From an uncultured Alphaproteobacteria bacterium (lineage in GTDB: Bacteria; Pseudomonadota; Alphaproteobacteria; HIMB59; GCA-002718135), in contig CACEMP010000004.1 of the NCBI GenBank assembly GCA_902560675.1, positions 2,678 through 66,677 on the forward strand: a stretch of 64,000 nt of DNA, in the 5' to 3' direction. Positions 1 to 26,615 of the stretch are shown in pieces. The position numbers were made by a program, and so were the translations under genes. The notes below the pieces were generated by a model. The model searched no databases and was not told the origin of the DNA. It was given only the letters and a program-made list of their open reading frames with translations. Within the stretch, counting starts at the first letter, position 1, and every line of letters begins with the position of its first letter.

Positions 1-937
1 TATGAAATTTCGATACCCTGAACCAGGGTTCCGGAAATTCAATAGTAATAGATTTAATATTTTTTTTTATAAAAATTTTTTGATTTAAAATTAACCCTCC
101 TTGTATTACTCTTTGAGAATAACTGCAAACTGGCCAAAACTTTATAAAGTTTGGATATTTAATTACAGAATTTCCAAAATCTGATTTTTTAAAATTATTA
201 TTTAATTTTTTAGAAAATTTACTACCATACAATTCAATAAATCCTCTTTCAATATTCCAAATATCCTGTTTCGCTGTCCCTCCATTTTTAGCAAGTAAGG
301 CTGATTGCACTCCTGCCTGGGCAGCAAACCCAATATGAAAAGCTTTTGTATCTTTGCCAAATTGTTGTTTTAAACCAGATGAAAAACTTGTTGCAATAGA
401 AATTGCATTTGCCATTTGAAACGCATTTAATTTTAACACTTTAGATACTGCGGCAGCAGTGCCAACCACACCTATTGTATTTGCAGAATGCCACCCTTTA
501 TAATAATGATCATAAGTAAGTGATTGTCCCAATTTTATTATTAATTCATATCCTACCACCCATCCATGATATGTTTCTTCAATTGAGATATTTTTCATTT
601 GGGCGATAGATATAAGGGCTGAAAAAATTGGGGCACTAGGATGAGATCCTGCTACGTATTCGTAATCATCAAAGTCTATAGACGCTGATCTGACTCCAAG
701 TAAAAAACATGCAGCAGAAATAGATAATCTTTTTCCTCCTCCAAAAATCATAATTTTTCCTGAATTATTATTTTCTAAACAGTATTTTAAGGCAACCTTT
801 GATTGTTTTTCTTTAACACCTGATAATATACAAGCAAGGGTATCTATGAATGCATTTTCTGCTCTTTTATAAGTTGCCTTATTTATTTTAATTTTTTTTT
901 GTGATGCCCAATTACAAAATTTTTTGTGAAAACTCAT
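1..937 (-). CDS. MmgE/PrpD-family protein (2-methylcitrate dehydratase superfamily). The N-terminal ~312 aa are present and the C-terminus lies beyond the window edge.
   Basis: My own minus-strand translation from the ATG at 937..935 gives MSFHKKFCNWASQ...IDFDDYEYVAGSHPSAPIF...KGWHSANTIGVVGTAAA...KAFHIGFAAQAGVQSALLA. The frame stays open to position 1, so it is absent from the ORF track. Its start overlaps the stop of the upstream gene (ATGA). Confidence 0.75.
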   Translation of the reverse strand, partial: MSFHKKFCNWASQKKIKINKATYKRAENAFIDTLACILSGVKEKQSKVALKYCLENNNSGKIMIFGGGKRLSISAACFLLGVRSASIDFDDYEYVAGSHPSAPIFSALISIAQMKNISIEETYHGWVVGYELIIKLGQSLTYDHYYKGWHSANTIGVVGTAAAVSKVLKLNAFQMANAISIATSFSSGLKQQFGKDTKAFHIGFAAQAGVQSALLAKNGGTAKQDIWNIERGFIELYGSKFSKKLNNNFKKSDFGNSVIKYPNFIKFWPVCSYSQRVIQGGLILNQKIFIKKNIKSITIEFPEPWFRVSKFH

Positions 938-1752
938 TTTTTAAATTTTGCAATCATTGTAATTTCTTGTTTTTCATTAAGTATTCTTCCAATAATTTCA
1001 TCTTCTGCATTTTCACCAATTTCTAAAAAGAAATTATAGTTGTATACAAGAGGCGCTGTAGCTTTATATTCAAAAGAATTGAACTCAATCTCATTTTTTC
1101 TTGCAAGATTTAAAAGATAAGTTGCTTGAAGAGGTGCATGGACTAATAATCCCATATGTCCCTCATAATTTTTTGTATAATCATTATCATAATGAATCTT
1201 ATGTCCATTAAAAGTTAAAGCAGAATATCTAAATAGCAAAGTTGATGAACTAAAAATTTCTACTTTATCAATTAAATTTAATTCATCTTTTATTTTAGCA
1301 GTAGTGGAGTTTTTATTTATTTTTTCTCTATAAACAGCAGTTTGATCTTCTGATACTATTAATTTATTTTTATTTAAATATTCATGATTAATATTCACGA
1401 AACATAGATTGCCTGATCTACCTTCTTTAAATTCAATACTTGAAATTGTTGAATTTTTTTCAATTTCAGATCCAATTTCAAATTCATCAAATATTTTTAT
1501 TTTACCACCAGCCCACATTCTAATTTTATAAGGTAACTCTGGTAAGAAAATTCCTAATTTTGTATTTCCATCTTTGTCTAGATCATTTATTGAAGCTACT
1601 TCTGGGCATAAGCATAAAAAAATTCCCTCAGGCACAGTTTGATCACTTAAACAATTTTGATCAATTGTTTTTTTTAAATGATCAACTAATCGAGGAGTAA
1701 TAATATCACTTCTTGAAATTTTCTTTCCAATCCAATCTTTATAATTATTCAT
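934..1752 (-). CDS. Double hotdog-fold (MaoC-like / FAS1-like) acyl dehydratase-hydratase, similar to HTD2 / itaconyl- or mesaconyl-CoA hydratases
   Basis: 272-aa ORF with an RMWAGG motif and a C-terminal hotdog half (FNGHKIHYDNDY...GLLVHAPL). It is translationally coupled to the PrpD-like gene. Confidence 0.55.
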   Translation of the reverse strand: MNNYKDWIGKKISRSDIITPRLVDHLKKTIDQNCLSDQTVPEGIFLCLCPEVASINDLDKDGNTKLGIFLPELPYKIRMWAGGKIKIFDEFEIGSEIEKNSTISSIEFKEGRSGNLCFVNINHEYLNKNKLIVSEDQTAVYREKINKNSTTAKIKDELNLIDKVEIFSSSTLLFRYSALTFNGHKIHYDNDYTKNYEGHMGLLVHAPLQATYLLNLARKNEIEFNSFEYKATAPLVYNYNFFLEIGENAEDEIIGRILNEKQEITMIAKFKK

Positions 1753-1812
1753 ATTTTATTTACTCGAGTTTACTTATAAATTAATTATTAGTATAATTTA
1801 TATTTTTAAAAA

Positions 1813-3450
1813 ATGAAAAAAACATTTGACTTTATAATAGCAGGAGGAGGTTCTGCTGGCTGTACATTAGCCTCAAGATTATCTGAAAATAAAGATATAA
1901 AGGTATTATTAATAGAAGCGGGGGGGTCAGGAAAAAGTTTATTCACTCAAATGCCCGGTGGTAACGGATACATTTTTGGAAACCCTAAATTTGATTGGGG
2001 TTTTGAGTCAATACCTCAACCTTCTTTAAATAATAGAAAAATCTTATACCCTAGAGGTAAAGGACTAGGAGGATCCTCTCTTTTAAACGGTATGATTTAC
2101 ATGAGAGGTGCTCCGGGTGATTTTAATAGGTGGAGACAAAAAGGCTTAGAGGGCTGGTCATATAATGATGTATTGCCATATTTCAAAAAATCTGCCTCAG
2201 CTTTTCATAGAGAAAAAAATGAATATCATTCACATTCAGGTCCTTTAAAACTTACACCAGCTGGTAATTACAATTCTATAGATAAAGCATTTATTGACGC
2301 ATGTGTTGAAGCTGGGGCAGAAATTAATAATGATTTTTACAATGGTAATCTAAATGGAGTAGGCCGATATGATGTTAAAGTATGGAATGGCAAAAGACAA
2401 TCATCTGCAGAAGCTTATTTGAAATTTAAACCTAGCAACTTAACAATTTATAAAAATACATCTGTAATAAAAATTTTAATTGAGAAAAATAAAGCTAAAG
2501 GATTACTTTTATCAAATGGTGAAGTTTATGCATCATCAGAGGTAATTTTATCTTTAGGAGCATTCGGTAGCCCCAAATGCTTAATGTTATCAGGAATCGG
2601 ACCAGAGGAACATTTAAAAGAAAAAAATATAGATTTATTAATTAATTTACCTGGAGTAGGTGAAAACCTTCACGATCATCCTGTTATGCCAATGAATTGG
2701 GCTTTTCAAAACAACAATTTAAGTTTCTCTAAATATCAAAGGATTGATAGAGCTATTATTGTTGGATTAAAATATATTTTATTCAAAAAGGGATTAGCTG
2801 CAGCTCCTTTTTGGTCAACAAATCTATTTCATGCAATAAGAGAAAAAGAAATGCCTGAAATACAAGTTTTCATGACACCTATGTGTTTTAAAGAAGAAAA
2901 AGATAACTGGTATATGAGTTTAGATAATTTATTAAATTTTGGTTCATTATTTTTTTCTAGAGGTAAAAAAGCTTTTCCAGGATTACACTTTCAAATAAAT
3001 TTATTAAGACCAAAGAGCACAGGAAGTGTAAAACTTAAAAGCTCAAATCCTAATGATGAACTTAATATAAATCCAAATTGGTTCATCGATCCATCTGATA
3101 TGGAAGATATGATCGAAGGAATGAAACATACAAGAGAAGTATTATCAAAACCCAGTTTAGCTAAAATTGTTTCAGAAGAATTACTTCCAGGAAAAAAAAA
3201 CAAAAGTGATCAAGATTTAAAAGAGTCAGTTCGAAATCATGTACAAACCGGCCATCATCCTGCATCTACTTGCGCAATGGGTTCAAGTAATAATAAAATG
3301 GCTGTACTTGATAATCAACTTAAAGTTAGAGGAATAGACAATCTTAGAGTAGTGGATGCTTCTTCTTTCCCAGATATGATAAGTGGTAATATAAATGCAT
3401 CTGTAATAATGTTAGCAGAAAAAGCATCAGATATGATATTAAAAAATTAA
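1813..3450 (+). CDS. GMC-family FAD oxidoreductase (choline/alcohol dehydrogenase-like)
   Basis: 545 aa. N-terminal FAD fold FDFIIAGGGSAGCTLASRLSE, GKGLGGSSLLNGMIY, and C-terminal HPASTCAMG...VVDASSFP active-site region. Confidence 0.85.
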   Translation: MKKTFDFIIAGGGSAGCTLASRLSENKDIKVLLIEAGGSGKSLFTQMPGGNGYIFGNPKFDWGFESIPQPSLNNRKILYPRGKGLGGSSLLNGMIYMRGAPGDFNRWRQKGLEGWSYNDVLPYFKKSASAFHREKNEYHSHSGPLKLTPAGNYNSIDKAFIDACVEAGAEINNDFYNGNLNGVGRYDVKVWNGKRQSSAEAYLKFKPSNLTIYKNTSVIKILIEKNKAKGLLLSNGEVYASSEVILSLGAFGSPKCLMLSGIGPEEHLKEKNIDLLINLPGVGENLHDHPVMPMNWAFQNNNLSFSKYQRIDRAIIVGLKYILFKKGLAAAPFWSTNLFHAIREKEMPEIQVFMTPMCFKEEKDNWYMSLDNLLNFGSLFFSRGKKAFPGLHFQINLLRPKSTGSVKLKSSNPNDELNINPNWFIDPSDMEDMIEGMKHTREVLSKPSLAKIVSEELLPGKKNKSDQDLKESVRNHVQTGHHPASTCAMGSSNNKMAVLDNQLKVRGIDNLRVVDASSFPDMISGNINASVIMLAEKASDMILKN

Positions 3451-3499
3451 TTAATCACAAATAAGTTGACCAATGAAAATATTTAAGTTTAAATAAATT

Positions 3500-4972
3500 A
3501 TGTCTGAAATTTATACTTACAAATTTTATGCAGGAAATAGATGGCATGAACCTTCTTCTGGAAAATATTTTGAAAGTGAGGATCCATCTATAGGAAAAGT
3601 ATGGGCAAGGGTCCCTGATTGTAATGAAAAAGATATTACTCTTGCAGTAACATCTGCTAAACATGCTTACTATGACGGTCCTTATGGTAAAATGCATCCA
3701 GCAGAAAGAGGAAGAATTCTAACTAGAATTGGAGATATAATTTCTAAAAATGCAGAACGTATTGGGCAAATAGAAACTAAAGATAACGGAAAACTTCCAA
3801 AAAATATTACTCCTTCTTTAACTAGCTGGCAAACTGAGAGTTTTTATTATTATGCAGGTATGTGTGACAAGTATGAAGGCAGATTAATACCTTCAGAAGT
3901 TCCAAATATGCATAATTATTTAAAATGGGAACCGTTTGGAGTTGTTGCACTTATTCTTCCTTGGAATTCGCCAATTGGAACATTAATCTGGAAATTAGCG
4001 CCAGCAATAGCAGCAGGCAATACTGTTGTAATAAAACCCTCAGAAAGAGCATCGTGCTCTACATTGGAATTAATGAAAATTTTAGAAGAAGCCGATCTAC
4101 CCGAAGGTTTGATTAATGTTGTTACTGGTTTTGGTCCTACCACTGGTGCGCCTCTTATTGAACATCAAGATGTTAGGATGATAAGTTTTACAGGTGGAAC
4201 AAAAGGGGGTAGTGCAGCAAGTTTAAGCGCATCTAAAAATGTTAAACCTATTATTATGGAGCTAGGAGGAAAATCACCACAAATTGTATTTAAAGACGCT
4301 GATTTAACTTTATCAGTAAATGGAGTTGTATCCGGAATCTTCCCAGTTTCAGGTCATAGTTGTATTTCAGGATCAAGGATACTAGTACATAAAGATATAA
4401 AAGATAAATTTACTCATAATTTATTAGAAGTTGTTAAAAGGGCTAAAGTTGGTCACCCAAATGATACTACAACACAAATTGGCCCTATAGCAAATAAAGA
4501 GCAATATGATTTTATTTTATCTAAGATAGAGGCTGCAGAAAAAAGAGGTTTAAAATTATTAATTGATGGAAGAAAAGATCAAAAATCTGAGGGATACTAC
4601 ATTGGTCCAACTATTTTTGATAATGTTCCAAATGAAGATGATTTAGCTCAAAATGAAGTATTTGGACCTGTCGCCTCAATTCAAACTTGGGATGATGAGG
4701 ATGAAGTAATTAAAATTGCAAACGATAGTATTTATGGTCTTGCAGCAGGTATTTGGACTAAGGATACTAATAAAGCTATACGATTAGCCGATAAGATAGA
4801 AGCCGGAACTGTTTATATAAATAATTATTTTAATGCATCTACTCAATCACCAGTTGGAGGCTTCAAGCAATCAGGATACGGTCGTGAAAATGGATGGGAG
4901 GGAATGCAAAGTTACATGCAGACTAAATCTACTTGGCTAGCTACCAATCCATCTCAACCAAACCCATTTTAA
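3500..4972 (+). CDS. NAD(P)-dependent aldehyde dehydrogenase (betaine-aldehyde dehydrogenase-like)
   Basis: 490 aa. It has the ALDH motifs LPWNSP, MELGGKSP (catalytic Glu) and GHSCISGSR (catalytic Cys). It lies directly downstream of the GMC oxidoreductase, in a betA-betB-like order. Confidence 0.85.
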   Translation: MSEIYTYKFYAGNRWHEPSSGKYFESEDPSIGKVWARVPDCNEKDITLAVTSAKHAYYDGPYGKMHPAERGRILTRIGDIISKNAERIGQIETKDNGKLPKNITPSLTSWQTESFYYYAGMCDKYEGRLIPSEVPNMHNYLKWEPFGVVALILPWNSPIGTLIWKLAPAIAAGNTVVIKPSERASCSTLELMKILEEADLPEGLINVVTGFGPTTGAPLIEHQDVRMISFTGGTKGGSAASLSASKNVKPIIMELGGKSPQIVFKDADLTLSVNGVVSGIFPVSGHSCISGSRILVHKDIKDKFTHNLLEVVKRAKVGHPNDTTTQIGPIANKEQYDFILSKIEAAEKRGLKLLIDGRKDQKSEGYYIGPTIFDNVPNEDDLAQNEVFGPVASIQTWDDEDEVIKIANDSIYGLAAGIWTKDTNKAIRLADKIEAGTVYINNYFNASTQSPVGGFKQSGYGRENGWEGMQSYMQTKSTWLATNPSQPNPF

Positions 4973-4979
4973 GAAGTAA

Positions 4980-5771
4980 TTATTCTTTCCAGTTTGGTTC
5001 TCTTTTTTCTAAAAAAGCTTCAATACCTTCCTTGGAATCATCATGTAACATATTTTCCGTCATTACCTTTGAAGTAAAAGTATATGCGTCTTCTAAATTC
5101 AAATCTTTTTGTTTGTAAAAAGCTTCTTTACCAATTTTAATAATATTAGAAGATTTAGAAGATATTTTTTTAGCAATTTGAAATACATTTTCTTTTAAAC
5201 TATCTTCTTCAAAGACATCATTTATTAAACCAATCCTCAATGCTTTATTTGCATCTATAAGATCTCCAGTGAGAAGCATTTCCATTGCTTGCTTTTTACC
5301 TACTGTTCTTGATAATGGAACCATTGGTGTAGAACAAAATAATCCAATATTAACACCAGGAGTTGCATATTTTGCTCTGCTACTTGAGTAAGCTAAATCA
5401 CAGCTAGAAATTAACTGACAGCCTGCTGCAGTAGCAATACCATCAACCATAGCTATAACTGGTTTATTATTTTTATTAATTTTCAGCATAAGTTGAGAGC
5501 ACATTTGAAATATTTTTTTAAAATAGCTTTCTCCTTTGTCATTTTGCAATCTTTGTGAATTTAAATCTTTTAAATTATGTCCTGCACAAAAAATGTTACC
5601 TTTTGATGATAAAATAATTACTCTTACATCATTATCTTTATCAGCAATGTCTAGCGCTGATGTTAATTCATTGATCATGTTTTCACTTAAAGTATTTTGG
5701 TTTTTCTGGTCATTAAGAATAATATTAAAAATATTATTATTTTTTTCGGTTAATATTAGATTAAAATTCAT
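4980..5771 (-). CDS. Enoyl-CoA hydratase/isomerase (crotonase) family protein, ECHDC3-like
   Basis: 263 aa with the crotonase oxyanion region FCAGHNLKD and VDGIATAAGCQL. It is the last gene of the minus-strand operon, with a 0-nt gap to the OsmC-like gene. Confidence 0.8.
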   Translation of the reverse strand: MNFNLILTEKNNNIFNIILNDQKNQNTLSENMINELTSALDIADKDNDVRVIILSSKGNIFCAGHNLKDLNSQRLQNDKGESYFKKIFQMCSQLMLKINKNNKPVIAMVDGIATAAGCQLISSCDLAYSSSRAKYATPGVNIGLFCSTPMVPLSRTVGKKQAMEMLLTGDLIDANKALRIGLINDVFEEDSLKENVFQIAKKISSKSSNIIKIGKEAFYKQKDLNLEDAYTFTSKVMTENMLHDDSKEGIEAFLEKREPNWKE

Positions 5772-6218
5772 TTAATTGATTTGAATTTCAACATCTTTAG
5801 ATAGTGAATTAGCGATAAAACAATACTTATGCGATCTCTCTTTCATCTTTTTCATTTCTTCATCAGAAATATTAAAATTATCTTCAAATAATATAGCTGG
5901 ATTTAGCTCTATTTTGTTGACGTACATTCTCCCCTCTGCATTTTTTCCTAAATACGAAATTGCTTTATCTTTATAATTAATAACTGGCCATTTCATTTTT
6001 GCAGCTAAAGCTAAGAATGTCATCATAAAACAACTACTTACAGCTGCAGCTAGTTTTTGTTCTGGATTAATATTAGTTTCGCTCCCTCCATAATCTGGAG
6101 ATGATCCCGCATCAATAGATACATTTTCGTTAAGTATTACTTTGTGATCAGTTAAATATTTTCCAAATTCGAGTTTTTGATCTCCTAACTCCCACTTTAA
6201 TTCGATTGAATGACTCAT
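5772..6218 (-). CDS. OsmC/Ohr-family protein
   Basis: The ORF-track frame is 5772..6266. I place the start at the internal Met (MSHSIELKWE...) at 6218 because the longer form would overlap the upstream gene by 47 nt, whereas the shorter form gives a TAAnATG junction. Size and pattern (..AAAVSSCFMMTF..SHKYCFIANS) fit OsmC. Confidence 0.7.
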   Translation of the reverse strand: MSHSIELKWELGDQKLEFGKYLTDHKVILNENVSIDAGSSPDYGGSETNINPEQKLAAAVSSCFMMTFLALAAKMKWPVINYKDKAISYLGKNAEGRMYVNKIELNPAILFEDNFNISDEEMKKMKERSHKYCFIANSLSKDVEIQIN

Positions 6219-6219
6219 T

Positions 6220-7341
6220 TTAAGAATAATTAAAAGGTAGTGAGCACACTTTACCTTTTCTCTCAATATTGTCTGGTGTTAATACGATAACATCCTGCCC
6301 TTCATTCCAATAATCTTTATCAACCATTGATAGCCCAATATTGGTTTTTAAAAATGGTGAATAAATGCCAGAGGTGATGTTACCAATTTGAAATCTATTT
6401 TTTGAGTATACAGGAAAAGGTATTGAGCACGGAGGAGTCGGGGATCCATCAAAAGTAATCCCTTTTATTTTTTTTTCTATTCCATTTTTTAATATTTTTT
6501 TTAATGCATTTTTTCCAATGAAATCATGAGATAAATTTTTACAATAATTATCAAATCCACATTCAATTGGATTATTTTCTAAAGTAAATTCATTACCATA
6601 GGATAATAAACCACCTTCTATTCTATCAATTAAATTTGGACATCCAGGTGAAATATTAAAATCTTTTCCTGCTTCCCAAATAGTTTCCCAAAGCTTTTTT
6701 CCTAAACTAAAACCTTTAAGATAAATCTCAAAACCATCTTGTTTGCTATATCCTGATCTTGCAATTATCTGCTTTGTTCCTTCAAATTCAAAAAAAGAAA
6801 AATGAAAGAATTTTAATTTTTTAATTTTTTCACCAAATATTGATGACATTAATTTTTCTGATTTTGGTCCTTGAATTGCTAGTGGGTAAATATCTGGTTC
6901 TATAATATCAACTTTAAAATTTCTTCCTACAGCCAATCCTTTTGCCCAAAGGAGAACATCTGAGTCTGCAACTGATAACCAATATTTATTTTCACTTAAT
7001 TTTAATAGTACTGGATCATTTATCATTCCTGCATTTTCATCAATCATTGGATAATAGTAACATTTACCAATAGGCATATCTTTTATTGATCTTGGAGACA
7101 TGAGTTGTATCAATTTTGTGGCATCCTCTCCTATTATTTGAACTTGTCGTTGACATGAAACATCCCAAATTTGAGTATCTTTAGATAAGTGCCAATAATC
7201 TTCTTCTACTGTTGCTTTATATGATTTTGGAAGGAGCATATGATTAACTACAGTAAAACCACTTACACCAGCTTCAATTACTTTCTCAGTATAGGGAGTT
7301 CTCCTAATACGTCTAGACATGTTTAATCCTGAATTACTCAT
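6220..7341 (-). CDS. dmdA: GcvT-fold, tetrahydrofolate-dependent aminomethyltransferase of the DmdA (DMSP demethylase) type
   Basis: The N-terminus SRRIRRTPYT..GVSGFTVVNHMLLP..IWDVSCQRQV and later ARSGYSKQDGFEIY and IEGGLLSYGNE match my memory of DmdA sequences much better than GcvT proper. I chose the start at the second Met (MSNSGLNMSRR), 1 nt after the upstream stop. The symbol is tentative, since this could be a paralogue. Confidence 0.55.
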   Translation of the reverse strand: MSNSGLNMSRRIRRTPYTEKVIEAGVSGFTVVNHMLLPKSYKATVEEDYWHLSKDTQIWDVSCQRQVQIIGEDATKLIQLMSPRSIKDMPIGKCYYYPMIDENAGMINDPVLLKLSENKYWLSVADSDVLLWAKGLAVGRNFKVDIIEPDIYPLAIQGPKSEKLMSSIFGEKIKKLKFFHFSFFEFEGTKQIIARSGYSKQDGFEIYLKGFSLGKKLWETIWEAGKDFNISPGCPNLIDRIEGGLLSYGNEFTLENNPIECGFDNYCKNLSHDFIGKNALKKILKNGIEKKIKGITFDGSPTPPCSIPFPVYSKNRFQIGNITSGIYSPFLKTNIGLSMVDKDYWNEGQDVIVLTPDNIERKGKVCSLPFNYS

Positions 7342-7342
7342 T

Positions 7343-7678: not shown

Positions 7679-7681
7679 AAC

Positions 7682-9424: not shown

Positions 9425-9425
9425 T

Positions 9426-11867: not shown

Positions 11868-11908
11868 AAAATTTATTCAACTTATCACAAAATAATGAAA
11901 AAAAAATT

Positions 11909-18235: not shown

Positions 18236-18237
18236 TT

Positions 18238-18501: not shown

Positions 18502-18506
18502 ATTTT

Positions 18507-19283: not shown

Positions 19284-20875
19284 TGTCTCAATACACTGAT
19301 TATATAATAATTGGTGCTGGTTCAGCTGGTTGTGTACTAGCAAATAGACTATCATCTCATTCAAAAAATAATGTAACTTTATTTGAAGCTGGCCCTTCTA
19401 ATAATACTTGGAAAGTTGATATGCCAAGTGCATTACTTTATGTAATGCATGACCCAAAATATAATTGGAAATATTATACTGAGCCTGAACCTTATTTAAA
19501 TAACAGATCTTTATATTGTCCTAGAGGTAAAATGTTAGGCGGTTGTTCCTCTCATAATGGAATGGTTTTTGCTAGAGGTCATAAAGAGGATTTTGATAGA
19601 TGGGAGTCTTATGGTTTAGATCAATGGAGCTATAATAAAGTTTTACCGTATTATAAAAAACTAGAAACATGGTCTGGAAAAAATAGCCTAAGAGGTAAAA
19701 ACGGCCCATTAAAAGTAAATAAATCTCAAATAGATAAAAAGTTTCCATTATTTAATGCAGTTCTTAAAGCTGCAAAAGAAGCTGGCTATAATATCTTTGA
19801 TGATTCAAATAGTACTAATAATGAAGGATTTGGTACATTTGATGTAACAATTGATAAAGGAGTTCGGCAAAGTATACCAAAAGCTTATTTAGATCCTATA
19901 AAGAACAGAAAAAATCTTCAAATAATAAAAAAAACATATGTAAAAAAAATAATTTTTAAAGACAAAGTTGCAATAGGAATAGAATATGTAAAAAATAATA
20001 AGACACATTATTTTTATGCAAATAAAGAAGTAATACTTAGTGCAGGCTCAATTAATTCTCCAAAAATACTGCAACTCTCAGGAATAGGTAATGCTGCACA
20101 TCTTAAAGATTTTGGAATTCCCATAATTAATGATTTAAAAGGAGTTGGTGAAAATCTTCAAGATCATTTAGAAATATATATTCAATATAAATCAAAGAAA
20201 AAAGAAACATTATATGATTTATCAACCAATTTTATTTCTCAAGGTATTGAAGGAAGCAAATGGTTTACTTTCAAGAAAGGTAAATTAGCTCACTCACACT
20301 TAGAGTTAGGTGGTTTTGTAAAAACAAATAAAAATTACTCACATCCAAATTTACAATTTCATTTTTTTCCATCATTAGTAATCAATCATGGTTTAACAAA
20401 TCCTGAATTTGATGCTTTTCAATTTCACGCATGTCCTAACAGGCCAAAGAGTAGGGGGTTTGTTAAAATAAAGTCAAATGATTTTAATATATCACCTCAA
20501 ATCCAATTTAATTACTTACAAAATCAAGAGGACTTAATTCAAATGAGAGACAGTGTGAAAATTGCAAAAAATATTTGCTCTCAGAAATCACTCTTAGATT
20601 ATGTTGATTACGAAATAAGGCCTGGAATTGATATTAAATCTAATGAAGAATTAGACGAAATTATTAGAAACACTGCTGAGTCGGCATATCACCCCTCTTG
20701 TACTAACAAAATGGGTACAGATCATTATTCAGTTGTTGATCAAAAAACAAAAGTACACGGCATTGAAAATTTAAGAATTATTGATGCATCAATTATGCCT
20801 GATATTGTTAGTGCCAATTTAAATGCTAGTGTAGTAATGATCGCAGAGAGAGCCGCTGATTTTTTGATAAATTAA
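19283..20875 (+). CDS. GMC-family FAD oxidoreductase (choline dehydrogenase-like), second paralogue
   Basis: 530 aa with DYIIIGAGSAGCVLANRLS, GKMLGGCSSHNGMVF and C-terminal HPSCTNKMG...IIDASIMP. The GTG start overlaps the SDR stop by 1 nt. Confidence 0.85.
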   Translation: MSQYTDYIIIGAGSAGCVLANRLSSHSKNNVTLFEAGPSNNTWKVDMPSALLYVMHDPKYNWKYYTEPEPYLNNRSLYCPRGKMLGGCSSHNGMVFARGHKEDFDRWESYGLDQWSYNKVLPYYKKLETWSGKNSLRGKNGPLKVNKSQIDKKFPLFNAVLKAAKEAGYNIFDDSNSTNNEGFGTFDVTIDKGVRQSIPKAYLDPIKNRKNLQIIKKTYVKKIIFKDKVAIGIEYVKNNKTHYFYANKEVILSAGSINSPKILQLSGIGNAAHLKDFGIPIINDLKGVGENLQDHLEIYIQYKSKKKETLYDLSTNFISQGIEGSKWFTFKKGKLAHSHLELGGFVKTNKNYSHPNLQFHFFPSLVINHGLTNPEFDAFQFHACPNRPKSRGFVKIKSNDFNISPQIQFNYLQNQEDLIQMRDSVKIAKNICSQKSLLDYVDYEIRPGIDIKSNEELDEIIRNTAESAYHPSCTNKMGTDHYSVVDQKTKVHGIENLRIIDASIMPDIVSANLNASVVMIAERAADFLIN

Positions 20876-21257: not shown

Positions 21258-21275
21258 TTTGTAAATTTTGTAAAT
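21258..21275. promoter_or_regulatory. Right operator candidate: perfect tandem TTTGTAAAT x2 overlapping the regulator start codon
   Basis: TTTGTAAATTTTGTAAAT spans 21258..21275 and the ATG is at 21274. This mirrors the left site about 75 bp away. The core resembles the TTTGCAAA motif that I recall for RamB/PrpR-family regulators. Confidence 0.45.
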
Positions 21276-22713
21276 GAATATAGAAGCTGATATAAATTTA
21301 GGTCCAAGATTAAAAAAACAAAGGATTAACAAGGGTTTTTCCCAAGCTAAACTATCTAAATCAATCGGAATATCACCAAGTTATTTAAATTTAATAGAAA
21401 GTGGGAAACGTAAAATACCTCTTTCGTTGTTAATAAAAGCTTCCGATGAACTAGATTTATCAATAAAGGACTTCTCTGCAGAATCGAACAAACGACTACT
21501 TTCAGATGTTATGGATGTTTTGAGTAATGAAATTTTTGATGATCTTAAAATTACTAACCATGACACTAGTAATTTTATTGGATCCAATCCGAACATTGCA
21601 AAAGCATTACTAACAATAAATGATTCATTTAAAAGTTATAAAGAAGATATGCAGAATCGTCTTGAAACAATGGATGTTAATTCTGGCACTATAGAAAAAC
21701 CAACAAGACTACCAGTTGAAATAGTTTCAGATATTTTGCAAGAGAATAAAAATTATTTTCATGATCTAGAAATAAGTTCAGAAAAATTAAGAAAAGAAAT
21801 AGGACTTAAAATAGGTCCAAATATTGGATCTGGCTCAAAACTAACACAGTATCTTCAATCAAAGCATGGTATCAAAGTTACAATAGTAACGATTGATCAA
21901 GATGAAAAAATAGTCAAACGCTATGATGAAAAAAGTAAAACTTATTATTTGTCTGAAATGCTAACATACACTTCAAGAAACTTTCATTTAGCTTCTCAAG
22001 TTGCTTATTTAGAAGCTACTGACATTATAAATAAGGTAATCAAAGAAAATAATGTTGAGTCGGAGGAGGTTGTTCCTTTGCTTAAACTTTCATTATTAAA
22101 TTACTATGCAGCCGCATTTATGATGCCTTATGATGATTTTTTAAAAAGTGCAAAACTTCACAGATATGATGTAGAAATTTTAATGCACCATTATGCATGT
22201 AGCTTTGAGCAAGTTACTCATAGACTCACAAATCTACAGAGACCTGGTAATGCTGGTGTTCCATTTCATTTTTTAAAAACAGATATTGCAGGAAATGTTT
22301 CTAAAAGATTTTCTCTTTCAGGAATCCATATTCCCAGGCATGGAGGATCATGTCCAAGATGGAATGTTTACACTGCATTTTTAAATCCAGGAAAGATTCA
22401 CCCACAAATTTCAAAAATGCCTGATGGAAAAGTCTATTTTTGTATAGCAAGAGCATTTGAAAAGGGGATTGAAAAACATGGCATGCCAAAAAGTTTTGTT
22501 TCTATTGGCTTAGGATGTGACATGAAATATGCAAAAGATTTGGTTTATTCTGAAGGAATTGACCTTACAAATAAGAAATTACAAATGCCAATTGGTGTTT
22601 CTTGTAGAATTTGTCCGAGGGTCGAGTGTCAACAAAGAGCATTTCCACCAATCGACAAAGAGTTGAAGCTTGATATCAAGTATAGAGGAACGTCTCCATA
22701 CGTAACGATTTAG
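21274..22713 (+). CDS. XRE-family HTH regulator with DUF955/DUF2083-type C-terminal domains (ScfR / RamB / PrpR short-chain acyl-CoA regulator family)
   Basis: 479 aa with an N-terminal HTH (LGPRLKKQRINKGFSQAKLSKSIGISPSYLNLIESGKR). The C-terminal pattern is AAAFMMPYDDF..RYDVE..SFEQVTHRLTNLQRPGNAGVPFHFLKTDIAGNVSKR..GGSCPRWNV..GLGCD..CRICPRVECQQRAFPP, including a Cys cluster. Confidence 0.8.
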   Translation: MNIEADINLGPRLKKQRINKGFSQAKLSKSIGISPSYLNLIESGKRKIPLSLLIKASDELDLSIKDFSAESNKRLLSDVMDVLSNEIFDDLKITNHDTSNFIGSNPNIAKALLTINDSFKSYKEDMQNRLETMDVNSGTIEKPTRLPVEIVSDILQENKNYFHDLEISSEKLRKEIGLKIGPNIGSGSKLTQYLQSKHGIKVTIVTIDQDEKIVKRYDEKSKTYYLSEMLTYTSRNFHLASQVAYLEATDIINKVIKENNVESEEVVPLLKLSLLNYYAAAFMMPYDDFLKSAKLHRYDVEILMHHYACSFEQVTHRLTNLQRPGNAGVPFHFLKTDIAGNVSKRFSLSGIHIPRHGGSCPRWNVYTAFLNPGKIHPQISKMPDGKVYFCIARAFEKGIEKHGMPKSFVSIGLGCDMKYAKDLVYSEGIDLTNKKLQMPIGVSCRICPRVECQQRAFPPIDKELKLDIKYRGTSPYVTI

Positions 22714-23717
22714 ATCTTTACTAACATTTTCCCTATATTTTTTCCATTAAGTAAATCAATAAATGCTTTAGGAGCATTTTCTAAACCTTCATAAACTGTC
22801 TCTTTAAATTTTATTTTGTTATTTTTTAACCAATCTTTCATATCGGTTTCAAATGGCTCATTATCATTTTCATGATCAAATATTAAAAATCCTTTTATGG
22901 TTAATCTTTTCACAAGCACATGAGCCATATTTTTTAAACCACTTGGGGGTGATGTTACATTCATTTGAGATATTCTGCCACAAATGACAATTCTTCCAAA
23001 GTTTTTCATTCTGAATATTGCAGACTCTAAAAAATCACCACCAACGTTATCAAAATATAAATCAAAACCTTCTGGACATATTTCTTTAAAATACAGAACA
23101 AGATTTTCAACTTTATTATAATTAAATGCGTGATCTACATTGAGTTCATTTTTTAACCACTTAACTTTTTCATCAGAGCCAGTACTTGCATAAACAGTGC
23201 AACCTAAATTTTTAGCAATTTGACATACTGTAGATCCAACACTACCACCAGCTGATGAAACAAGTACGGATTGTCCAGCTTTCAATTTCCCATAATTAAA
23301 TAGACCTATATAAGCTGTTTGTCCTGTCATACCTAATGGACCTAAGTAAGACTGAATAGGTAAATCTGTAGAATGAATTTTTTTTATTTGACCACTATTA
23401 CAAACAAAATTATCTCTCATTCCAAAATTGCTAAAAACAGTATCACCTATTTTAAAATAATCATCATCTGACTCTTGAACTGAACCAATTGCATAACCCT
23501 CCATTTCCTCACCTAATTTAAATGGTGGTTTATAATTTTTTCTCTCTGTCATTCTCGCTCTCATATAAGGATCAACAGAGATCCAAGAATTTAAAACGTG
23601 AATATTATTTTTGTTATTTAATTTAATTTCTTTTGTTTTTATTTCAAAATCATCTTCTGTTGGCAATCCTTGGGGGATATAATTTTTTAAAGCAACATAT
23701 TTACAAGTTTTTGTCAT
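22710..23717 (-). CDS. NADP-dependent medium-chain reductase (zinc-independent MDR, alkenal/enone reductase PTGR1/YncB/CurA-like)
   Basis: 335 aa with the nucleotide-binding motif VSSAGGSVGSTVCQIAK and no Zn-ligand Cys cluster. It overlaps the convergent regulator gene by 4 nt. Confidence 0.75.
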   Translation of the reverse strand: MTKTCKYVALKNYIPQGLPTEDDFEIKTKEIKLNNKNNIHVLNSWISVDPYMRARMTERKNYKPPFKLGEEMEGYAIGSVQESDDDYFKIGDTVFSNFGMRDNFVCNSGQIKKIHSTDLPIQSYLGPLGMTGQTAYIGLFNYGKLKAGQSVLVSSAGGSVGSTVCQIAKNLGCTVYASTGSDEKVKWLKNELNVDHAFNYNKVENLVLYFKEICPEGFDLYFDNVGGDFLESAIFRMKNFGRIVICGRISQMNVTSPPSGLKNMAHVLVKRLTIKGFLIFDHENDNEPFETDMKDWLKNNKIKFKETVYEGLENAPKAFIDLLNGKNIGKMLVKI

Positions 23718-23719
23718 AT

Positions 23720-24649
23720 TTATAACTTATATTTTTTCTTTAATTCAATCAAATCAATTAAAAAGTTATCTCTTATATTACTTAGTTTATTAATAGATAA
23801 TTTTTTTGATTGTATAGCAGTGCCTTTAATTATTTTTTGTTTTAATTCTTTACTTAATTTAGGTGATTTTAATTTTGTCCAAGGAAACTTTAAAGCTGGC
23901 CCAAACTGATCTAACATATGTTTCATACCTAATTCACCACCAGCTAAATGAAATGTCAGAAATGTTCCCATTAAAGCCCAACGCATACCAGGTCCGTAAG
24001 TAATCGCATCATCTAAATCTTTTGTTGTACCATAGCCATCATTAATTATATGCAATCCCTCTCTCCATAATGCTTCTTGCAATCTATCAGATAGAAATCC
24101 CGGTAATTCTTTTTCCACCAACAGAGTTTTCATTTTAATATTTTTATAAAATGTATTTGCTCTCTTAAAATAAATATTACTTGTCTTATTGCCTTTAACT
24201 ATTTCAACTAAAGGCAAAATATAAACAGGATTAAAGGGGTGAGCAATAATAAACCTTTGTGGATTAATACATTCTGATTGCAATTTTGAAGGTAACAATC
24301 CAGAAGAACTTGAAGCTATAATTGATTGTTTTGGCGCAAATTTACTAATATTTTTGATAACTAGTTTTTTTAATTCTAATCTTTCAGGAATATTTTCTTG
24401 AATTAGATCAGAATCCTTAACTGCCTCATCTAAATTATTTGTAATATTAAGATTTTTTAAGTTAATTTTTCTTTTATATAATTTTTGAACAACTGGTTTA
24501 GTTCTAACTATTTCTTTTTTAAGATATTCTATTTGTTTTTTATTTTTATCAAAAGCTGTAACTTTTTTATTGCATGCTAAAAAACGCAATATCCAACCAG
24601 TGCCTATAACGCCAGTTCCTATTACAGAAATATTTTTGATATTTTTCAA
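23720..24649 (-). CDS. 3-hydroxyacyl-CoA dehydrogenase-fold NAD enzyme of the L-carnitine dehydrogenase type
   Basis: 309 aa with VIGTGVIGTGW, SGLLPS, HPFNPVYILPLVEIV, LPGFLSDRLQEALWREGLH and GPGMRWALMGTFLTFHLAGGELGMKHMLDQFGPALKFPWTKL. These match my recollection of LcdH/CDH sequences. It is adjacent to a BKACE. Confidence 0.7.
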   Translation of the reverse strand: MKNIKNISVIGTGVIGTGWILRFLACNKKVTAFDKNKKQIEYLKKEIVRTKPVVQKLYKRKINLKNLNITNNLDEAVKDSDLIQENIPERLELKKLVIKNISKFAPKQSIIASSSSGLLPSKLQSECINPQRFIIAHPFNPVYILPLVEIVKGNKTSNIYFKRANTFYKNIKMKTLLVEKELPGFLSDRLQEALWREGLHIINDGYGTTKDLDDAITYGPGMRWALMGTFLTFHLAGGELGMKHMLDQFGPALKFPWTKLKSPKLSKELKQKIIKGTAIQSKKLSINKLSNIRDNFLIDLIELKKKYKL

Positions 24650-24650
24650 A

Positions 24651-25541
24651 CTAAAAATGTTTTTTTAATTTTAATTTTTCTCTAACTTGTTCTGGATTAA
24701 GTATAGATGATCCTAAGTCTTCAACAATGCATCTAGCTTTTTCAACAAGTTGAGCATTAGAAGCAAAAACACCTTTTTTAAGATAAAGATTGTCTTCTAG
24801 TCCTACTCTTACATTTCCGCCTAAAATCACTGCCTGTGCTGCCATTGGCATTTGTGTTCTTCCAATACCAAATCCAGCCCAGAAACCTTCTTTAGGAACC
24901 ATTTCTGCCATTGCTTTCATTGCGGTTGTTGTAGCAGGTGATCCCCAGGGGATACCAAGGCATATTTGATATAAAGGTGGCCCATCAATTAAACCTTCTT
25001 TATAAAGTTGATTTGCAAACCATAAGTGACCCATTTCAAAAGCTTCCATTTCTGGTTTAACCCCAAGTTCTTGCATTTTTTTTGCTGCAGATCGAAGTTG
25101 CATTGGAGTATGAACGAAAGTCATATTTGAATCACCAAAGTTGAGTGTTCCACAATCTAAAGTACACATTTCAGGGAGCAATTCTTCTACATGCTCCAAC
25201 CTACTTAAAGCGTCAATCATATCTGTATTTGGACCGACAGGATTAAGAGGATCTTTTTCTGTTCCAACTTCAAAATCTCCACCCATTCCTGTAGTAAAGT
25301 TTAGAACTACATCTGTATCTGAAGATCTTATTCGATCTGCAACTTCTTTATAATATTCCAATTTTCTTGATGGTTTTCCATCTGGCTCTCTTACATGAAT
25401 GTGAGCTATTGCAGCCCCCGCCTTTGCTGCTTCAATAGAAGCATCTGCTATTTGTTTTGGTGTTATAGGTAATTCTGGGTGTTTATTCGCTGTATCTCCA
25501 GAGCCAGTAACAGCACAAGAAATTATTACTTCATTATTCAT
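24651..25541 (-). CDS. BKACE-family enzyme (3-keto-5-aminohexanoate cleavage enzyme family, DUF849), probable dehydrocarnitine cleavage enzyme
   Basis: 296 aa with an N-terminal [12 protein letters not shown]...[26 protein letters not shown] typical of the BKACE TIM barrel. It has a 1-nt gap to the carnitine-dehydrogenase-like gene. Confidence 0.75.
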
Positions 25542-25583
25542 TTTTTTAATCTACTAGTATATTTATAATTATAAAAGAAAATT

Positions 25584-26051
25584 ATGAAAATATACTTAAA
25601 TTCTGGAAAAGTTAAAAAAGAATGGACTGATTATAATGGTCACATGAATCTTGCTTTTTATATTCATTTATTTGATGCAGGTTGGGAAGTGTTACTTCAA
25701 AAATTTAATATGGGAGAAGATTCAGCAAAAATAGAAAAGAAAACTACCTTTGCAGTTGAGTCTCATACAACTTATGACAAAGAAGTTAAAGAAGGAGATG
25801 AAGTAGATATAAACTTATTATTTTTAGATAGAGATAAAAAAAGATTAATCTACAAGTTGGAGATGACCCATAAAGAGGAAGGTTATAGAGCTGCAACAAC
25901 AGAAGTATGCTCATTATATGTAGATCTAAATATTAGGAAAGTAGCAGAAATAGAAAAAGAAAAGCAAAGCAGAATAGATAATTTTATTGAAAATAAAAAA
26001 AGTAGTTTTAATCCAGGTAATTTATCCTTAATTCATAAATTAAAAAAATAA
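25584..26051 (+). CDS. 4HBT/YbgC-type hotdog acyl-CoA thioesterase (candidate betainyl-CoA thioesterase)
   Basis: 155 aa with the N-terminal catalytic region EWTDYNGHMNLAFY. It is divergent from the BKACE operon, separated by a 42-nt intergenic region. Confidence 0.65.
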   Translation: MKIYLNSGKVKKEWTDYNGHMNLAFYIHLFDAGWEVLLQKFNMGEDSAKIEKKTTFAVESHTTYDKEVKEGDEVDINLLFLDRDKKRLIYKLEMTHKEEGYRAATTEVCSLYVDLNIRKVAEIEKEKQSRIDNFIENKKSSFNPGNLSLIHKLKK

Positions 26052-26615
26052 TTATAAATTTCTATAGGGAGTTCTATTAAAAATTCTTTGAACCATTGGA
26101 ACAAATTCTTTTAACGGTATTGTATCGTAGTTCGGATCAAAAGATGCTTGATCCCATCTTTCACAAAAATTGATTGTATCTTGAAAGTGTTCATGACCTT
26201 TGAATTTATCTCTAAGATTTCTATCTTTACCATAATGATGATTATAGTAATAAGCTTGAAATAAACCGTGTTGCTCGACTATCCATCTTGTTTTTTCAGA
26301 GACAAACGGTTTTAAAACTGCTGCTGCAAGTTCAGAATGATTAAGAGGCGCTATCTCATCTCCAATATCATGCAATAAAGATGCAACTATCATTTCTTCA
26401 GAAGCTTCCTCTCGTAAAGCTCTAGATGCAGTTTGAAGTGAATGTTCTAATCTTGAAACTTGATAACCACCAAGAGATTTATCTAGGCCTTCTAAAACTC
26501 TTACTATCCTATCCGCAGTACCTTCTATGAATTTATCCTCAAAATTAGCCAAAAGTTCATAGTCTTCTTTATCGCCATGTTTCATTTCAGTGAATTTTAC
26601 TTCATCTTTAGTCAT
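26052..26615 (-). CDS. HD-domain protein of the PhnZ/TmpB-like (mixed-valent diiron oxygenase) type
   Basis: 187 aa. RLEHSLQTA, ASLLHDIGD, NHSE, EQHG and RWDQ supply an H, HD, H, H, D ligand pattern. The first two motifs closely resemble QLEHSLQCA and AALLHDLGH as I recall them from PhnZ. Confidence 0.5.
   Translation of the reverse strand: MTKDEVKFTEMKHGDKEDYELLANFEDKFIEGTADRIVRVLEGLDKSLGGYQVSRLEHSLQTASRALREEASEEMIVASLLHDIGDEIAPLNHSELAAAVLKPFVSEKTRWIVEQHGLFQAYYYNHHYGKDRNLRDKFKGHEHFQDTINFCERWDQASFDPNYDTIPLKEFVPMVQRIFNRTPYRNL

Follow-up and report, generated by a model that had tools for sequence, protein, structure and literature searches.

Do the genes crowded into the first 26.6 kb of a 64,000-nucleotide stretch of alphaproteobacterial DNA (contig CACEMP010000004.1 of assembly GCA_902560675.1, positions 2,678 to 66,677; this whole stretch is the window below) form one accessory island that feeds glycine betaine, as an initial annotation had proposed, or an inherited neighbourhood with several uses? 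SAR11 bacteria (Pelagibacterales) are the most abundant heterotrophs of the ocean and live largely on methylated osmolytes from phytoplankton. Knowing which genes turn carnitine, choline and compounds of the dimethylsulfoniopropionate (DMSP) type into methyl groups, methionine and glycine betaine bears on how the flow of carbon, nitrogen and sulfur in the sea is modelled, including the share of DMSP that escapes as climate-active dimethyl sulfide. In our judgement the block is probably a native SAR11 catabolic neighbourhood outside the genus Pelagibacter, made up of two older modules around one Dpp/Opp-type importer. Module A (1.8-18.2 kb) comprises the importer, a homocysteine S-methyltransferase-family protein (SMT), an orphan GcvT-fold protein (GcvT2), an FMN-dependent 2-hydroxy-acid dehydrogenase/oxidase (FMN dehydrogenase), a thiamine-diphosphate (TPP) enzyme, a transthyretin-like protein and a DmdA-family methyltransferase (DmdA-like protein). 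In the clade of the window an OsmC-family protein and an enoyl-CoA hydratase are added to it, and a GMC oxidoreductase (GMC1) and an aldehyde dehydrogenase (ALDH) lie alongside. Module B (18.2-26.6 kb) consists of an 87-amino-acid (aa) open reading frame (ORF), a short-chain dehydrogenase/reductase (SDR), a second GMC oxidoreductase (GMC2), a ScfR/RamB-type regulator, an MDR-family enone reductase, a 3HCDH-family candidate carnitine dehydrogenase (CDH), BKACE, a thioesterase and an HD-domain protein. The clustering is not a matter of chance, since these sub-modules are found again in other lineages among other flanking genes.

The relatives were collected by a scan of one genome per species with an alignment of GcvT2, which found 248; the best 80 of them were used. 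Loci of relatives carry the prefix L below. About 50 of the 80, at 78-99% GcvT2 identity, are genomes of single cells, and the nearest of all are from GORG; a further 29, labelled 'Pelagibacteraceae', reach 65-66%. Wherever a contig reaches, the order from the 272-aa protein near the left end of the window to GMC2 is the same in the approximately 50 species-level genomes, at 93-100% identity. Synteny does not end with the 26-kb block, which the initial annotation had treated as a discrete unit: in L085 the importer ATPase, 87-aa ORF, SDR, GMC2, regulator, MDR, CDH, BKACE, thioesterase and HD genes are followed by agmatine deiminase, N-carbamoylputrescine amidase and PotD, as in the window, and the HD gene adjoins polyamine genes in L088 as well. 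The compositional profiles that had been proposed as a check reveal no break: the GC content at third codon positions (GC3) is 0.163 for genes of the block and 0.158 outside (p = 0.42), total GC likewise does not differ, and among the tetranucleotide profiles a single 5-kb bin, which holds the binding-protein gene, is mildly atypical. The block is native, vertically inherited and without a right-hand boundary, because the gene order is conserved into the polyamine genes and GC3 is unchanged. A horizontally acquired island was rejected on the composition and synteny tests, and with it, for the relatives reached through GcvT2, the accessory status once suggested for the block. The absence of mobility signs, also reported earlier, was confirmed: no integrase or transposase domains occur in the block, no transfer RNA (tRNA) gene lies in or beside it (the sole one in the window is tRNA-Leu at 48949), and the only direct repeats are AT-rich chance matches of 67-91% identity. 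The 90%-identity clusters of the window RecA, TPP enzyme, SMT and binding protein have named members from Pelagibacterales or Pelagibacteraceae. Nine clusters were found in all; five of them exceed 600 members and that of the TPP enzyme holds 16; the clusters of GcvT2, SMT, binding protein, HD protein and transthyretin-like protein have 489-1334 members. One locus departs from the common order: in the single-cell assembly L008 (13481 onward) the reading frame of the TPP gene ends at codon 345, and folC, accD, trpA/B/F, pyrF and rpsA-like genes come next. Either the assembly is chimeric here or the left half of the block has truly been deleted.

Within this common order the relatives are mosaics. 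Nucleotide identity to a single relative jumps between approximately 77%, 95% and 99% at module borders. L010 matches the window at 95-96% from 1.5 to 12.7 kb and at 99% in the importer, but only at 77% in the 87-aa ORF, SDR and GMC2; L001 shows the reverse, with 77% at SMT and 92-96% over the importer, SDR and GMC2. SMT and GcvT2 form the most divergent pair, with 67-76% and 78-93% identity, respectively, where the flanks have 95-98% (L001, L046, L050, L053), and the drop in nucleotide identity to 73-77% coincides exactly with 10638-12832. SDR/GMC2 and the permeases were each observed in two allele classes in the population. Small insertions and deletions add to this variation. L001/L002 carry a PhyH-family dioxygenase gene (2746-3576), the product of which has no NCBIfam match, after the ATPase and before the 87-aa ORF; in the L007 type a gene for a membrane protein of 311 aa (L007 16892-17827) separates the hydratase from ALDH. 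An EamA gene occupies the position of the MmgE/PrpD-like gene in L001/L002. Because identity shifts abruptly at the module borders, allele blocks appear to have been exchanged among the relatives by homologous recombination, which together with small gene indels, and without inserted mobile elements, would account for the variation; such recombination would answer the question of a mobility mechanism that the initial annotation had raised.

The gene map is based on ORF frames and on Pfam and NCBIfam scans of the window proteins. The 25 genes of the block are given below, with bit scores and, where they apply, the cut-offs of the models.

2..937, minus strand: MmgE/PrpD-family protein, N-terminal 312 aa, running off the start of the window; weak PrpD matches (44 bits)
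934..1752, minus strand: 272-aa protein with a weak hotdog/dehydratase-like match (Pfam FAS1_DH_region 20.7 bits, cut-off 22; no NCBIfam match)
1813..3450, plus strand: GMC1, choline-dehydrogenase-like, below threshold (GMC_oxred_N and GMC_oxred_C; PRK02106 515 bits, cut-off 605; betA TIGR01810 451, cut-off 732)
3500..4972, plus strand: ALDH, nearest to betaine-aldehyde dehydrogenase (BADH) (Aldedh 525 bits; BADH TIGR01804 459, cut-off 668.6; PRK13252 431, cut-off 593)
4980..5771, minus strand: enoyl-CoA hydratase, ECHDC3-like crotonase (ECH_1; NF006008 367 bits, above the cut-off of 313)
5772..6218, minus strand: OsmC/Ohr-family protein (OsmC 55.9 bits; 148 aa as called in relatives)
6220..7341, minus strand: DmdA-like GcvT-fold methyltransferase (NF009133 533 bits, above the cut-off of 410)
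7343..7678, minus strand: transthyretin-like protein, related to 5-hydroxyisourate hydrolase (HIUase), with an altered C-terminus (Transthyretin 71 bits; TIGR02962 71, cut-off 87.45)
7682..9424, minus strand: TPP enzyme (three TPP domains; every NCBIfam equivalog below cut-off)
9426..10589, minus strand: FMN dehydrogenase (FMN_dh 395 bits; LldD models below cut-off)
10638..11867, minus strand: GcvT2 (GCV_T and GCV_T_C)
11909..12832, minus strand: SMT (S-methyl_trans 137 bits)
12897..14525, minus strand: periplasmic binding protein of family 5, peptide/nickel/opine type (SBP_bac_5 227 bits)
14822..15715 and 15712..16635, plus strand: ABC importer permeases (two BPD_transp_1 domains, as seen in the orthologous genes)
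16622..18235, plus strand: fused double ATPase of the importer (two ABC_tran domains, likewise in the orthologous genes)
18238..18501, plus strand: 87-aa ORF, no family match
18507..19283, plus strand: SDR (adh_short_C2 189 bits)
19283..20875, plus strand: GMC2, the best choline-dehydrogenase candidate (PRK02106 698 bits, above the cut-off of 605; betA equivalog 626, below the cut-off of 732)
21274..22713, plus strand: regulator of the RamB/ScfR type with XRE-HTH, M78-like and ScfR C-terminal parts (ScfRs 210 bits, Peptidase_M78, HTH_3; RamB NF038139 417, cut-off 700)
22710..23717, minus strand: MDR-family NADPH enone reductase, CurA/PTGR1-like (ADH_N_2 and ADH_zinc_N; CurA NF058644 304 bits, cut-off 440)
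23720..24649, minus strand: CDH, a 3HCDH-family enzyme with L-carnitine dehydrogenase as best match (3HCDH_N and 3HCDH; PRK07066 323 bits, cut-off 414; PRK07531 319, cut-off 592)
24651..25541, minus strand: BKACE (BKACE 324 bits)
25584..26051, plus strand: 4HBT-type thioesterase, proposed betainyl-CoA thioesterase (4HBT_2 74 bits)
26052..26615, minus strand: HD-domain protein with the PhnZ/TmpB oxygenase fold (TmpB NF049941 43.8 bits, cut-off 300)

These genes are tightly packed, with a coding density of 96% and tiny gaps, and start and stop codons abut or overlap inside each module. They are arranged in strand runs: minus at 2-1752; plus at 1813-4972; minus from 14525 down to 4980, a nine-gene operon; plus at 14822-20875 and 21274-22713; minus at 22710-25541; plus at 25584-26051; and minus at 26052-26615.

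Module B quite likely converts carnitine to glycine betaine, judging from homology together with conserved context. In the published route carnitine dehydrogenase, BKACE and an activity that cleaves betainyl-CoA turn carnitine into 3-dehydrocarnitine, betainyl-CoA and finally glycine betaine (PMC12482172; PMC9321204). CDH would thus catalyse the first step, BKACE would form betainyl-CoA and acetoacetate from 3-dehydrocarnitine, and the thioesterase would release glycine betaine. The L-carnitine dehydrogenase models are the best matches of the 3HCDH-family enzyme, yet both scores are below cut-off (323 vs 414; 319 vs 592). The sole NCBIfam match of the thioesterase is to residues 345-484 of the long-form carnitine 3-dehydrogenase PRK07531, at 67 bits. 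BKACE abuts CDH; the pair is also present in L085-L088, and BKACE homologues of 80% identity adjoin CDH in other lineages. The CDH-BKACE-thioesterase trio, which the initial annotation had taken for a carnitine-to-betaine module, stays together in five contexts, and in one of them, L086, an OpuAC ABC transporter and a TauD gene resembling gamma-butyrobetaine hydroxylase (GBBH) are close by.

Three further lineages with module B (L086, L087, L088) were reached via homologues of the BKACE and HD proteins. They keep HD, thioesterase, BKACE and CDH at 52-81% identity among quite different flanks. The regulator remains beside CDH/MDR in L085, L087 and L088; GMC2 is linked to the carnitine genes and the regulator in the same three loci at 66-81% identity, and SDR accompanies the module in L085, L086 and L087 at 55-74%. 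Missing are MDR in L088 and the regulator together with GMC2 in L086. The MDR enone reductase was observed after CDH in L085, L086 and L087; the textbook carnitine pathway gives such an enzyme no role. The 87-aa ORF between the ABC ATPase and SDR is also called at the same place in L001, L002 and L085. A further observation concerns L086, the lineage with the 80%-identical BKACE, where two amine-oxidase/DAO genes, another GcvT-fold gene and a Rieske oxygenase of GbcA/CntA-like architecture occupy positions 1-5789, a few kb from the carnitine module; L086 thus has the oxidase-plus-GcvT arrangement that the window is without.

A conversion of choline to betaine through GMC2 is plausible on sequence similarity. 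GMC2 travels with the carnitine module beside the same ScfR/RamB-type regulator, in support of the choline route of the earlier scheme. The gene order GMC (1813-3450) followed by ALDH (3500-4972), which had been likened to betA/betB, is present, and the nearest types are indeed choline dehydrogenase and BADH, but GMC1 and ALDH miss all curated thresholds. The three proteins GMC1, ALDH and GMC2 mostly miss the betA and BADH thresholds; GMC2 alone exceeds a subfamily model, PRK02106. No TetR (BetI), BCCT/BetT or OpuAC domain was detected among the proteins of the block.

The HD gene adjoins the thioesterase gene in all five contexts. The suggestion that its product is a TmpB-like enzyme making glycine betaine from a phosphonate can be kept for the fold and for the constant proximity of carnitine genes, both of which suit a convergence of several routes on glycine betaine, but the protein is not a TmpB orthologue: both curated thresholds are missed (TmpB NF049941 43.8 bits vs 300; Phn-HD 41 vs 215), a loop is replaced, and no 2-oxoglutarate hydroxylase partner (TauD/PhyH, i.e. 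TmpA/PhnY) is encoded among the proteins of the 64 kb. In relatives a PhyH gene lies 8 genes from HD in L001/L002, and the GBBH-like TauD gene of L086 is 11 kb off. Sequence similarity to TmpB/PhnZ is low and limited to the H...HD core, and a profile of the HD family finds only PhnZ (E 2e-8) and TmpB (E 7e-5). The AlphaFold2 model has a mean pLDDT of 76.7. Its top ten Foldseek matches in the PDB are all PhnZ/TmpB (TM 0.53-0.64, E 5e-5 to 2e-4, approximately 180 aligned columns), and the next match has E > 0.1. Residues H58, H82, D83, H93, H116 and D155 are invariant in 18 homologues and fit the pattern of the diiron motif H...HD...H...H...D of HD oxygenases (PMC8177086); H58, H82 and D83 align to PhnZ H34, H58 and D59, and H93, H116 and D155 are assigned by spacing only. 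The YxxE gating loop is not found in the family: PhnZ Y24 and E27 align to L48 and Y51, and [LMFI]GGY takes its place. The HD protein, which by its predicted fold would be a PhnZ/TmpB-type diiron oxygenase within module B, is best described as a putative new subfamily of PhnZ/TmpB-type enzymes belonging to the carnitine/choline module. A phosphonate-to-betaine activity is possible on the modelled fold.

Module A would strip methyl groups from onium osmolytes without an oxidase. In this proposal the DmdA-family enzyme, and probably GcvT2 too, would use tetrahydrofolate (THF) as acceptor for a methyl group of a sulfonium or ammonium cation, and SMT would methylate homocysteine, giving methionine. 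The module is conserved across SAR11, well beyond the closest relatives. The order binding protein-SMT-GcvT2-FMN dehydrogenase-TPP enzyme-transthyretin-like-DmdA-like is found again between other flanking genes in the lineage L089-L092, whose GcvT2 is 76-77% identical, and in L089 a GMC and ALDH pair accompanies the operon, but on the other side of the importer. The genus Pelagibacter keeps the core: FMN dehydrogenase, TPP enzyme, transthyretin-like and DmdA-like genes are present, and GcvT2 has another family-5 ABC system as its neighbour. In the contexts examined GcvT2 is always beside an SBP_bac_5 ABC system. The four-gene cluster from FMN dehydrogenase to DmdA-like was observed from this lineage through the genus Pelagibacter, at 6220-10589 (minus strand) in the window, at 12705-17072 in L003 and at 11929-16333 in L056.

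Both GcvT-fold proteins that the initial annotation had listed as demethylases are present, and one of them belongs to the DmdA family. The DmdA-like protein has the GCV_T plus GCV_T_C architecture and scores 533 bits with NF009133 (cut-off 410), compared with 637 for the characterised enzyme of P. ubique and 556 for the Pelagibacter counterpart. It is 48% identical to P. ubique DmdA (SAR11_0246, PDB 3tfh); genes at the same position in the genus Pelagibacter are 67% identical to the window protein and 46-47% to 3tfh. Because of these low identities to 3tfh, the window protein is assigned, by sequence, to a DmdA-like group distinct from SAR11_0246; a true DmdA orthologue was considered and rejected on the same figures (48% for the window, 47% for the Pelagibacter counterpart). 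A second DmdA-like paralogue without an assigned substrate is on record for HTCC1062 (Sun et al.). No acyl-CoA ligase or acyl-CoA dehydrogenase, as dmdB and dmdC would encode, was found in the block. GcvT2 scores about the same with the models of DmdA (177 bits) and of the C-terminal half of the trimethylamine N-oxide demethylase Tdm (182 bits), far below cut-off in both cases; its PDB matches score approximately 123 bits, and 3788 homologues were found at E <= 1e-20.

SMT belongs to the homocysteine S-methyltransferase family, as had been stated, but the models do not support the narrower label BHMT-like: MmuM NF007020 (86.2 bits vs 215) and BHMT PRK07534 (83.7 vs 338) score alike at about 85 bits, both far below cut-off, and solved BHMTs score only 33 bits. 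Three lineages keep the motifs DGG, SACVSPE and GGCCE, which, going by BHMT and MetH structures, we take to be homocysteine/zinc motifs. The dedicated importer (12897-18235) and the one regulator (21274-22713) of the earlier scheme are present, but the importer is of the peptide/nickel/opine type (SBP_bac_5) and not a known betaine transporter. The best solved relative of its binding protein is a nickel-binding protein, at only 85 bits. Its leader reads as twin-arginine (DRRQFMM), so the protein is probably exported folded via the Tat system. The membrane and ATPase parts of the importer are 99-100% identical in L006, L008-L011, L016 and L080.

For the remaining members of the operon, relatives of known structure give the enzyme class. 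The TPP enzyme, 79-85% identical in the genus Pelagibacter, is nearest to HACL/HACS/OXC (2-hydroxyacyl-CoA lyase / oxalyl-CoA decarboxylase, 189 bits). The FMN enzyme has (S)-mandelate dehydrogenase as best full-length solved relative (239 bits), and the hydratase has human ECHDC3 (238 bits); DmdD is not among the solved relatives of the hydratase, and a DmdD-like function was ruled out. 5-Hydroxyisourate hydrolases carry YRGS as their C-terminal signature. The transthyretin-like protein keeps their N-terminal HLL motif, and in each of the five lineages compared its C-terminus reads YSIWWS[KEQ]; on this ending and on the TIGR02962 score of 71 bits vs 87.45 an HIUase function was rejected. A literature search on dmdA neighbours, a transthyretin link and a THF-dependent betaine demethylase returned no paper on these genes together.

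Which donor would module A use? For sulfonium compounds of the DMSP type the likelihood is no lower than for glycine betaine, because of the DmdA-family enzyme, a DddP-like neighbour in L053 and OsmC. L053 has the importer-SMT-GcvT2 unit alone, beside a DddP-like M24 protein and near a 355-aa MetE-like protein (L053 2343-3605 and 14698-15765). The DddP-like protein scores 367 bits with the NCBIfam DddP model, compared with a cut-off of 600; the context hints that the importer-SMT-GcvT2 unit may handle sulfonium compounds. In P. ubique HTCC1062 osmC lies beside bhmT, is co-induced with it and is the most induced gene under sulfur limitation, and SAR11 depends on reduced organic sulfur (PMC5069961).

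Neither the block nor the whole 64 kb encodes a dimethylglycine or sarcosine oxidase or dehydrogenase, as the initial annotation had noted for FAD-dependent enzymes. The sole DAO-family protein of the window (33767-35089) is a member of the polyamine cluster and scores 48 bits with soxB (cut-off 529). The view that GcvT-fold-only enzymes may act without an oxidase on sulfonium donors holds up, as one of the two belongs to the DmdA family and no oxidase partner would therefore be needed for 6220-7341. Dimethylglycine and sarcosine are not onium compounds, and DMGDH/SoxA need a flavin partner. Their direct demethylation by GcvT-fold-only proteins is unlikely on chemical grounds. These steps are probably encoded elsewhere in the genome or absent; in subgroup Ia SAR11 they are encoded elsewhere in the genome (Sun et al.).

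Directly after the block, at 26644-35089, lies a polyamine cluster with agmatine deiminase, N-carbamoylputrescine amidase, a PotD/A/B/C-like transporter, a GlnA-like ligase (177 bits with the gamma-glutamylputrescine synthetase model) and the DAO-family oxidase. Beyond it the window contains housekeeping genes (Sua5, GlmU, DAHP synthase, GltX, rpsD, purB, recA, alaS, icd) and an AcrB-type pump. SAM-II/SAM-V riboswitches were detected neither at gathering thresholds in the 64 kb nor at E <= 1 in 12.7-21.4 kb, and a promoter/terminator scan returned no more sites than in shuffled sequence. At the left end, the 272-aa protein has 90-95% identity in many relatives and 66% in the L001 type.

Several points weigh against the block as a pair of modules for onium compounds. 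Most of the most specific models are missed (CDH 323 vs 414, both BADH models, betA, BHMT, MmuM and TmpB), and all enzyme activities in both modules are predicted. The DmdA-family protein has 48% identity to the characterised enzyme, and its paralogue group stands in a context different from the dmdA-dmdB-dmdC cluster; dmdB and dmdC were not found nearby when the block was searched, and the hydratase is not DmdD-like. We know of no betaine or sulfonium ligand for SBP_bac_5 importers. FMN dehydrogenase, TPP enzyme, transthyretin-like protein, OsmC, MDR, SDR and the 87-aa ORF have no step assigned to them. SAR11 gene order is generally conserved, also over long evolutionary distances, and for that reason adjacency is weaker evidence for a shared function. 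The loci were found through GcvT2, and genomes of the clade that have no GcvT2 are invisible to such a sample.

The model of the initial annotation, in which the whole 26.6 kb is one accessory island, all modules lead to glycine betaine and the BHMT-like and two GcvT-fold proteins then demethylate it stepwise, has support on the side of module B: GMC2, the CDH-BKACE-thioesterase trio and the TmpB-like HD protein stand together here and co-occur in other lineages, and the nearest characterised relative of each yields glycine betaine. A homocysteine S-methyltransferase and two THF-binding enzymes are present too, and a similar betaine island is known from Arctic SAR11 (PMC12421898). As an account of the entire block it is nevertheless improbable. 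In approximately 50 relatives the block is not accessory, and neither a compositional break nor a boundary was found; one GcvT-fold enzyme is a sulfonium-type DmdA-family protein, the methyl transfer from dimethylglycine or sarcosine that the model demands is chemically unfavourable, and the importer-SMT-GcvT2 unit adjoins a DddP-like gene in L053. The betaine scheme covers 14 of the 25 genes, but leaves the central operon with the DmdA-family, FMN dehydrogenase, HACL-like TPP and transthyretin-like genes unexplained. The eleven genes outside it are the PrpD-like fragment, the 272-aa protein, enoyl-CoA hydratase, OsmC, the transthyretin-like protein, TPP enzyme, FMN dehydrogenase, 87-aa ORF, SDR, second GMC and MDR. 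Functional unity may also be denied altogether, with the genes being neighbours only through the dense packing and strong synteny of streamlined SAR11 genomes. The 96% coding density, the tiny intergenic gaps, the long-range conservation of SAR11 gene order mentioned above and generic annotations such as SDR, MDR, ECH and OsmC would suit that view, whereas passive synteny would not predict sub-modules that recur with wholly different flanks in other lineages, and start and stop codons abut or overlap within each module; we hold it to be very improbable.

Two further proposals concern module A. It might be an operon that salvages sulfur and methionine from a 2-hydroxy acid with a sulfonium group or from a similar compound; candidates are 4-dimethylsulfonio-2-hydroxybutyrate (DMSHB), S-methylmethionine and dimethylsulfonioacetate. 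After uptake by the importer, the substrate would be demethylated by SMT, GcvT2 or the DmdA-like protein, and FMN dehydrogenase would convert the 2-hydroxy acid to a 2-oxo acid. The TPP enzyme would then remove one carbon and the BADH-like ALDH would oxidise the aldehyde, with DMSP/methylmercaptopropionate or methionine precursors as products. The likeness of the FMN enzyme to mandelate dehydrogenase, followed by TPP enzyme and ALDH, recalls the order of steps in the mandelate pathway, the operon also contains a DmdA-family gene, and DddP-like and short MetE-like genes are near the unit in L053; the co-induction of OsmC with bhmT under sulfur limitation in P. ubique and the need of SAR11 for reduced organic sulfur (PMC5069961) fit as well. 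The scheme is pure inference, however, with no paper found that links these genes; the TPP enzyme is nearest to CoA-dependent lyases and not to 2-oxoacid decarboxylases, while the block has no CoA ligase, the transthyretin-like protein has no place in it, and the DddP-like protein, at 367 bits, falls well short of the 600 that its model requires. We regard it as unlikely. A tentative alternative, possible rather than probable, is that module A encodes an undescribed pathway, not for DMSP or glycine betaine but for some other abundant onium osmolyte (e.g. DMSHB or another 2-hydroxy acid with a sulfonium or ammonium group), that GcvT2 is a new oxidase-independent onium:THF methyltransferase and that the HD protein represents a third kind of PhnZ/TmpB-type oxygenase in quaternary-amine catabolism. 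We retain the native SAR11 neighbourhood of two modules as the preferred reading. It defines a conserved gene set for non-Ia SAR11, with a capacity that would be inherited and reshuffled by recombination and not carried on a mobile island. It also includes four conserved families without a known reaction: GcvT2; SMT; the PhnZ/TmpB-like HD protein; and the DmdA-like paralogue together with the FMN, TPP and transthyretin-like proteins that accompany it. Ocean metagenomes contain all four in very large numbers.

Among known systems, the mandelate pathway has the same enzyme classes as the central operon and its neighbour (FMN 2-hydroxyacid dehydrogenase, TPP enzyme and ALDH), and alpha-oxidation (PhyH, 2-hydroxyacyl-CoA lyase, ALDH) is alike in its TPP and ALDH classes, with a PhyH-family gene inserted in L001/L002. 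The likeness concerns enzyme classes only, there being no aromatic or fatty-acid genes here, and a link to GcvT-fold methyltransferases is, to our knowledge, unprecedented in both pathways. The bhmT-osmC-ordL region of HTCC1062 (hypervariable region 3), which is tied to methyl/sulfur metabolism, pairs a homocysteine S-methyltransferase-family gene with an OsmC gene in one region, as does the window; here, however, SMT and OsmC are approximately 5.7 kb apart in one operon, no SAM-II/SAM-V riboswitch was found, and BHMT and MmuM fit equally poorly. P. ubique DmdA (SAR11_0246, 3tfh) and the window protein have the same two-domain GcvT fold and exceed the same equivalog model (637 and 533 bits), whereas identity is 48% and the group of the window protein always has FMN dehydrogenase, TPP and transthyretin-like genes as neighbours and not dmdB/dmdC.

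Compared with PhnY/PhnZ and TmpA/TmpB, the predicted fold of the HD protein matches only PhnZ and TmpB and six candidate iron ligands are kept; on the other hand, [LMFI]GGY replaces YxxE, no 2-oxoglutarate hydroxylase adjoins it in the window, and its neighbours are carnitine genes and not phosphonate genes. The cdhCAB genes of Pseudomonas aeruginosa and the long-form CDH of Sinorhizobium meliloti follow the same logic as module B, i.e. a 3HCDH-type dehydrogenase, BKACE and a betainyl-CoA thioesterase activity. In the window, by comparison, the thioesterase is separate and divergently transcribed, the regulator is of the ScfR/RamB type and not CdhR, CDH remains below the NCBIfam cut-offs, and a conserved MDR, SDR and HD protein are added. 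The closest published system is the glycine-betaine island of Arctic SAR11 (mBio 2025), which contains an ABC transporter, choline dehydrogenase, ALDH, carnitine dehydrogenase, BKACE and acyl-CoA thioesterase, has no mobility genes and was proposed to spread by homologous recombination (PMC12421898). That island occurs in only half of the isolates, with a phylogeny incongruent with the core genome, whereas the window block is syntenic in all relatives seen. It possesses a betaine-type transporter and two BBOX genes where the window has a Dpp-type importer, and it is without the GcvT-fold, homocysteine methyltransferase, FMN dehydrogenase, TPP and HD genes that are present in the window. Common to both are the absence of mobility genes and the set of CHDH, ALDH, CDH, BKACE and thioesterase.

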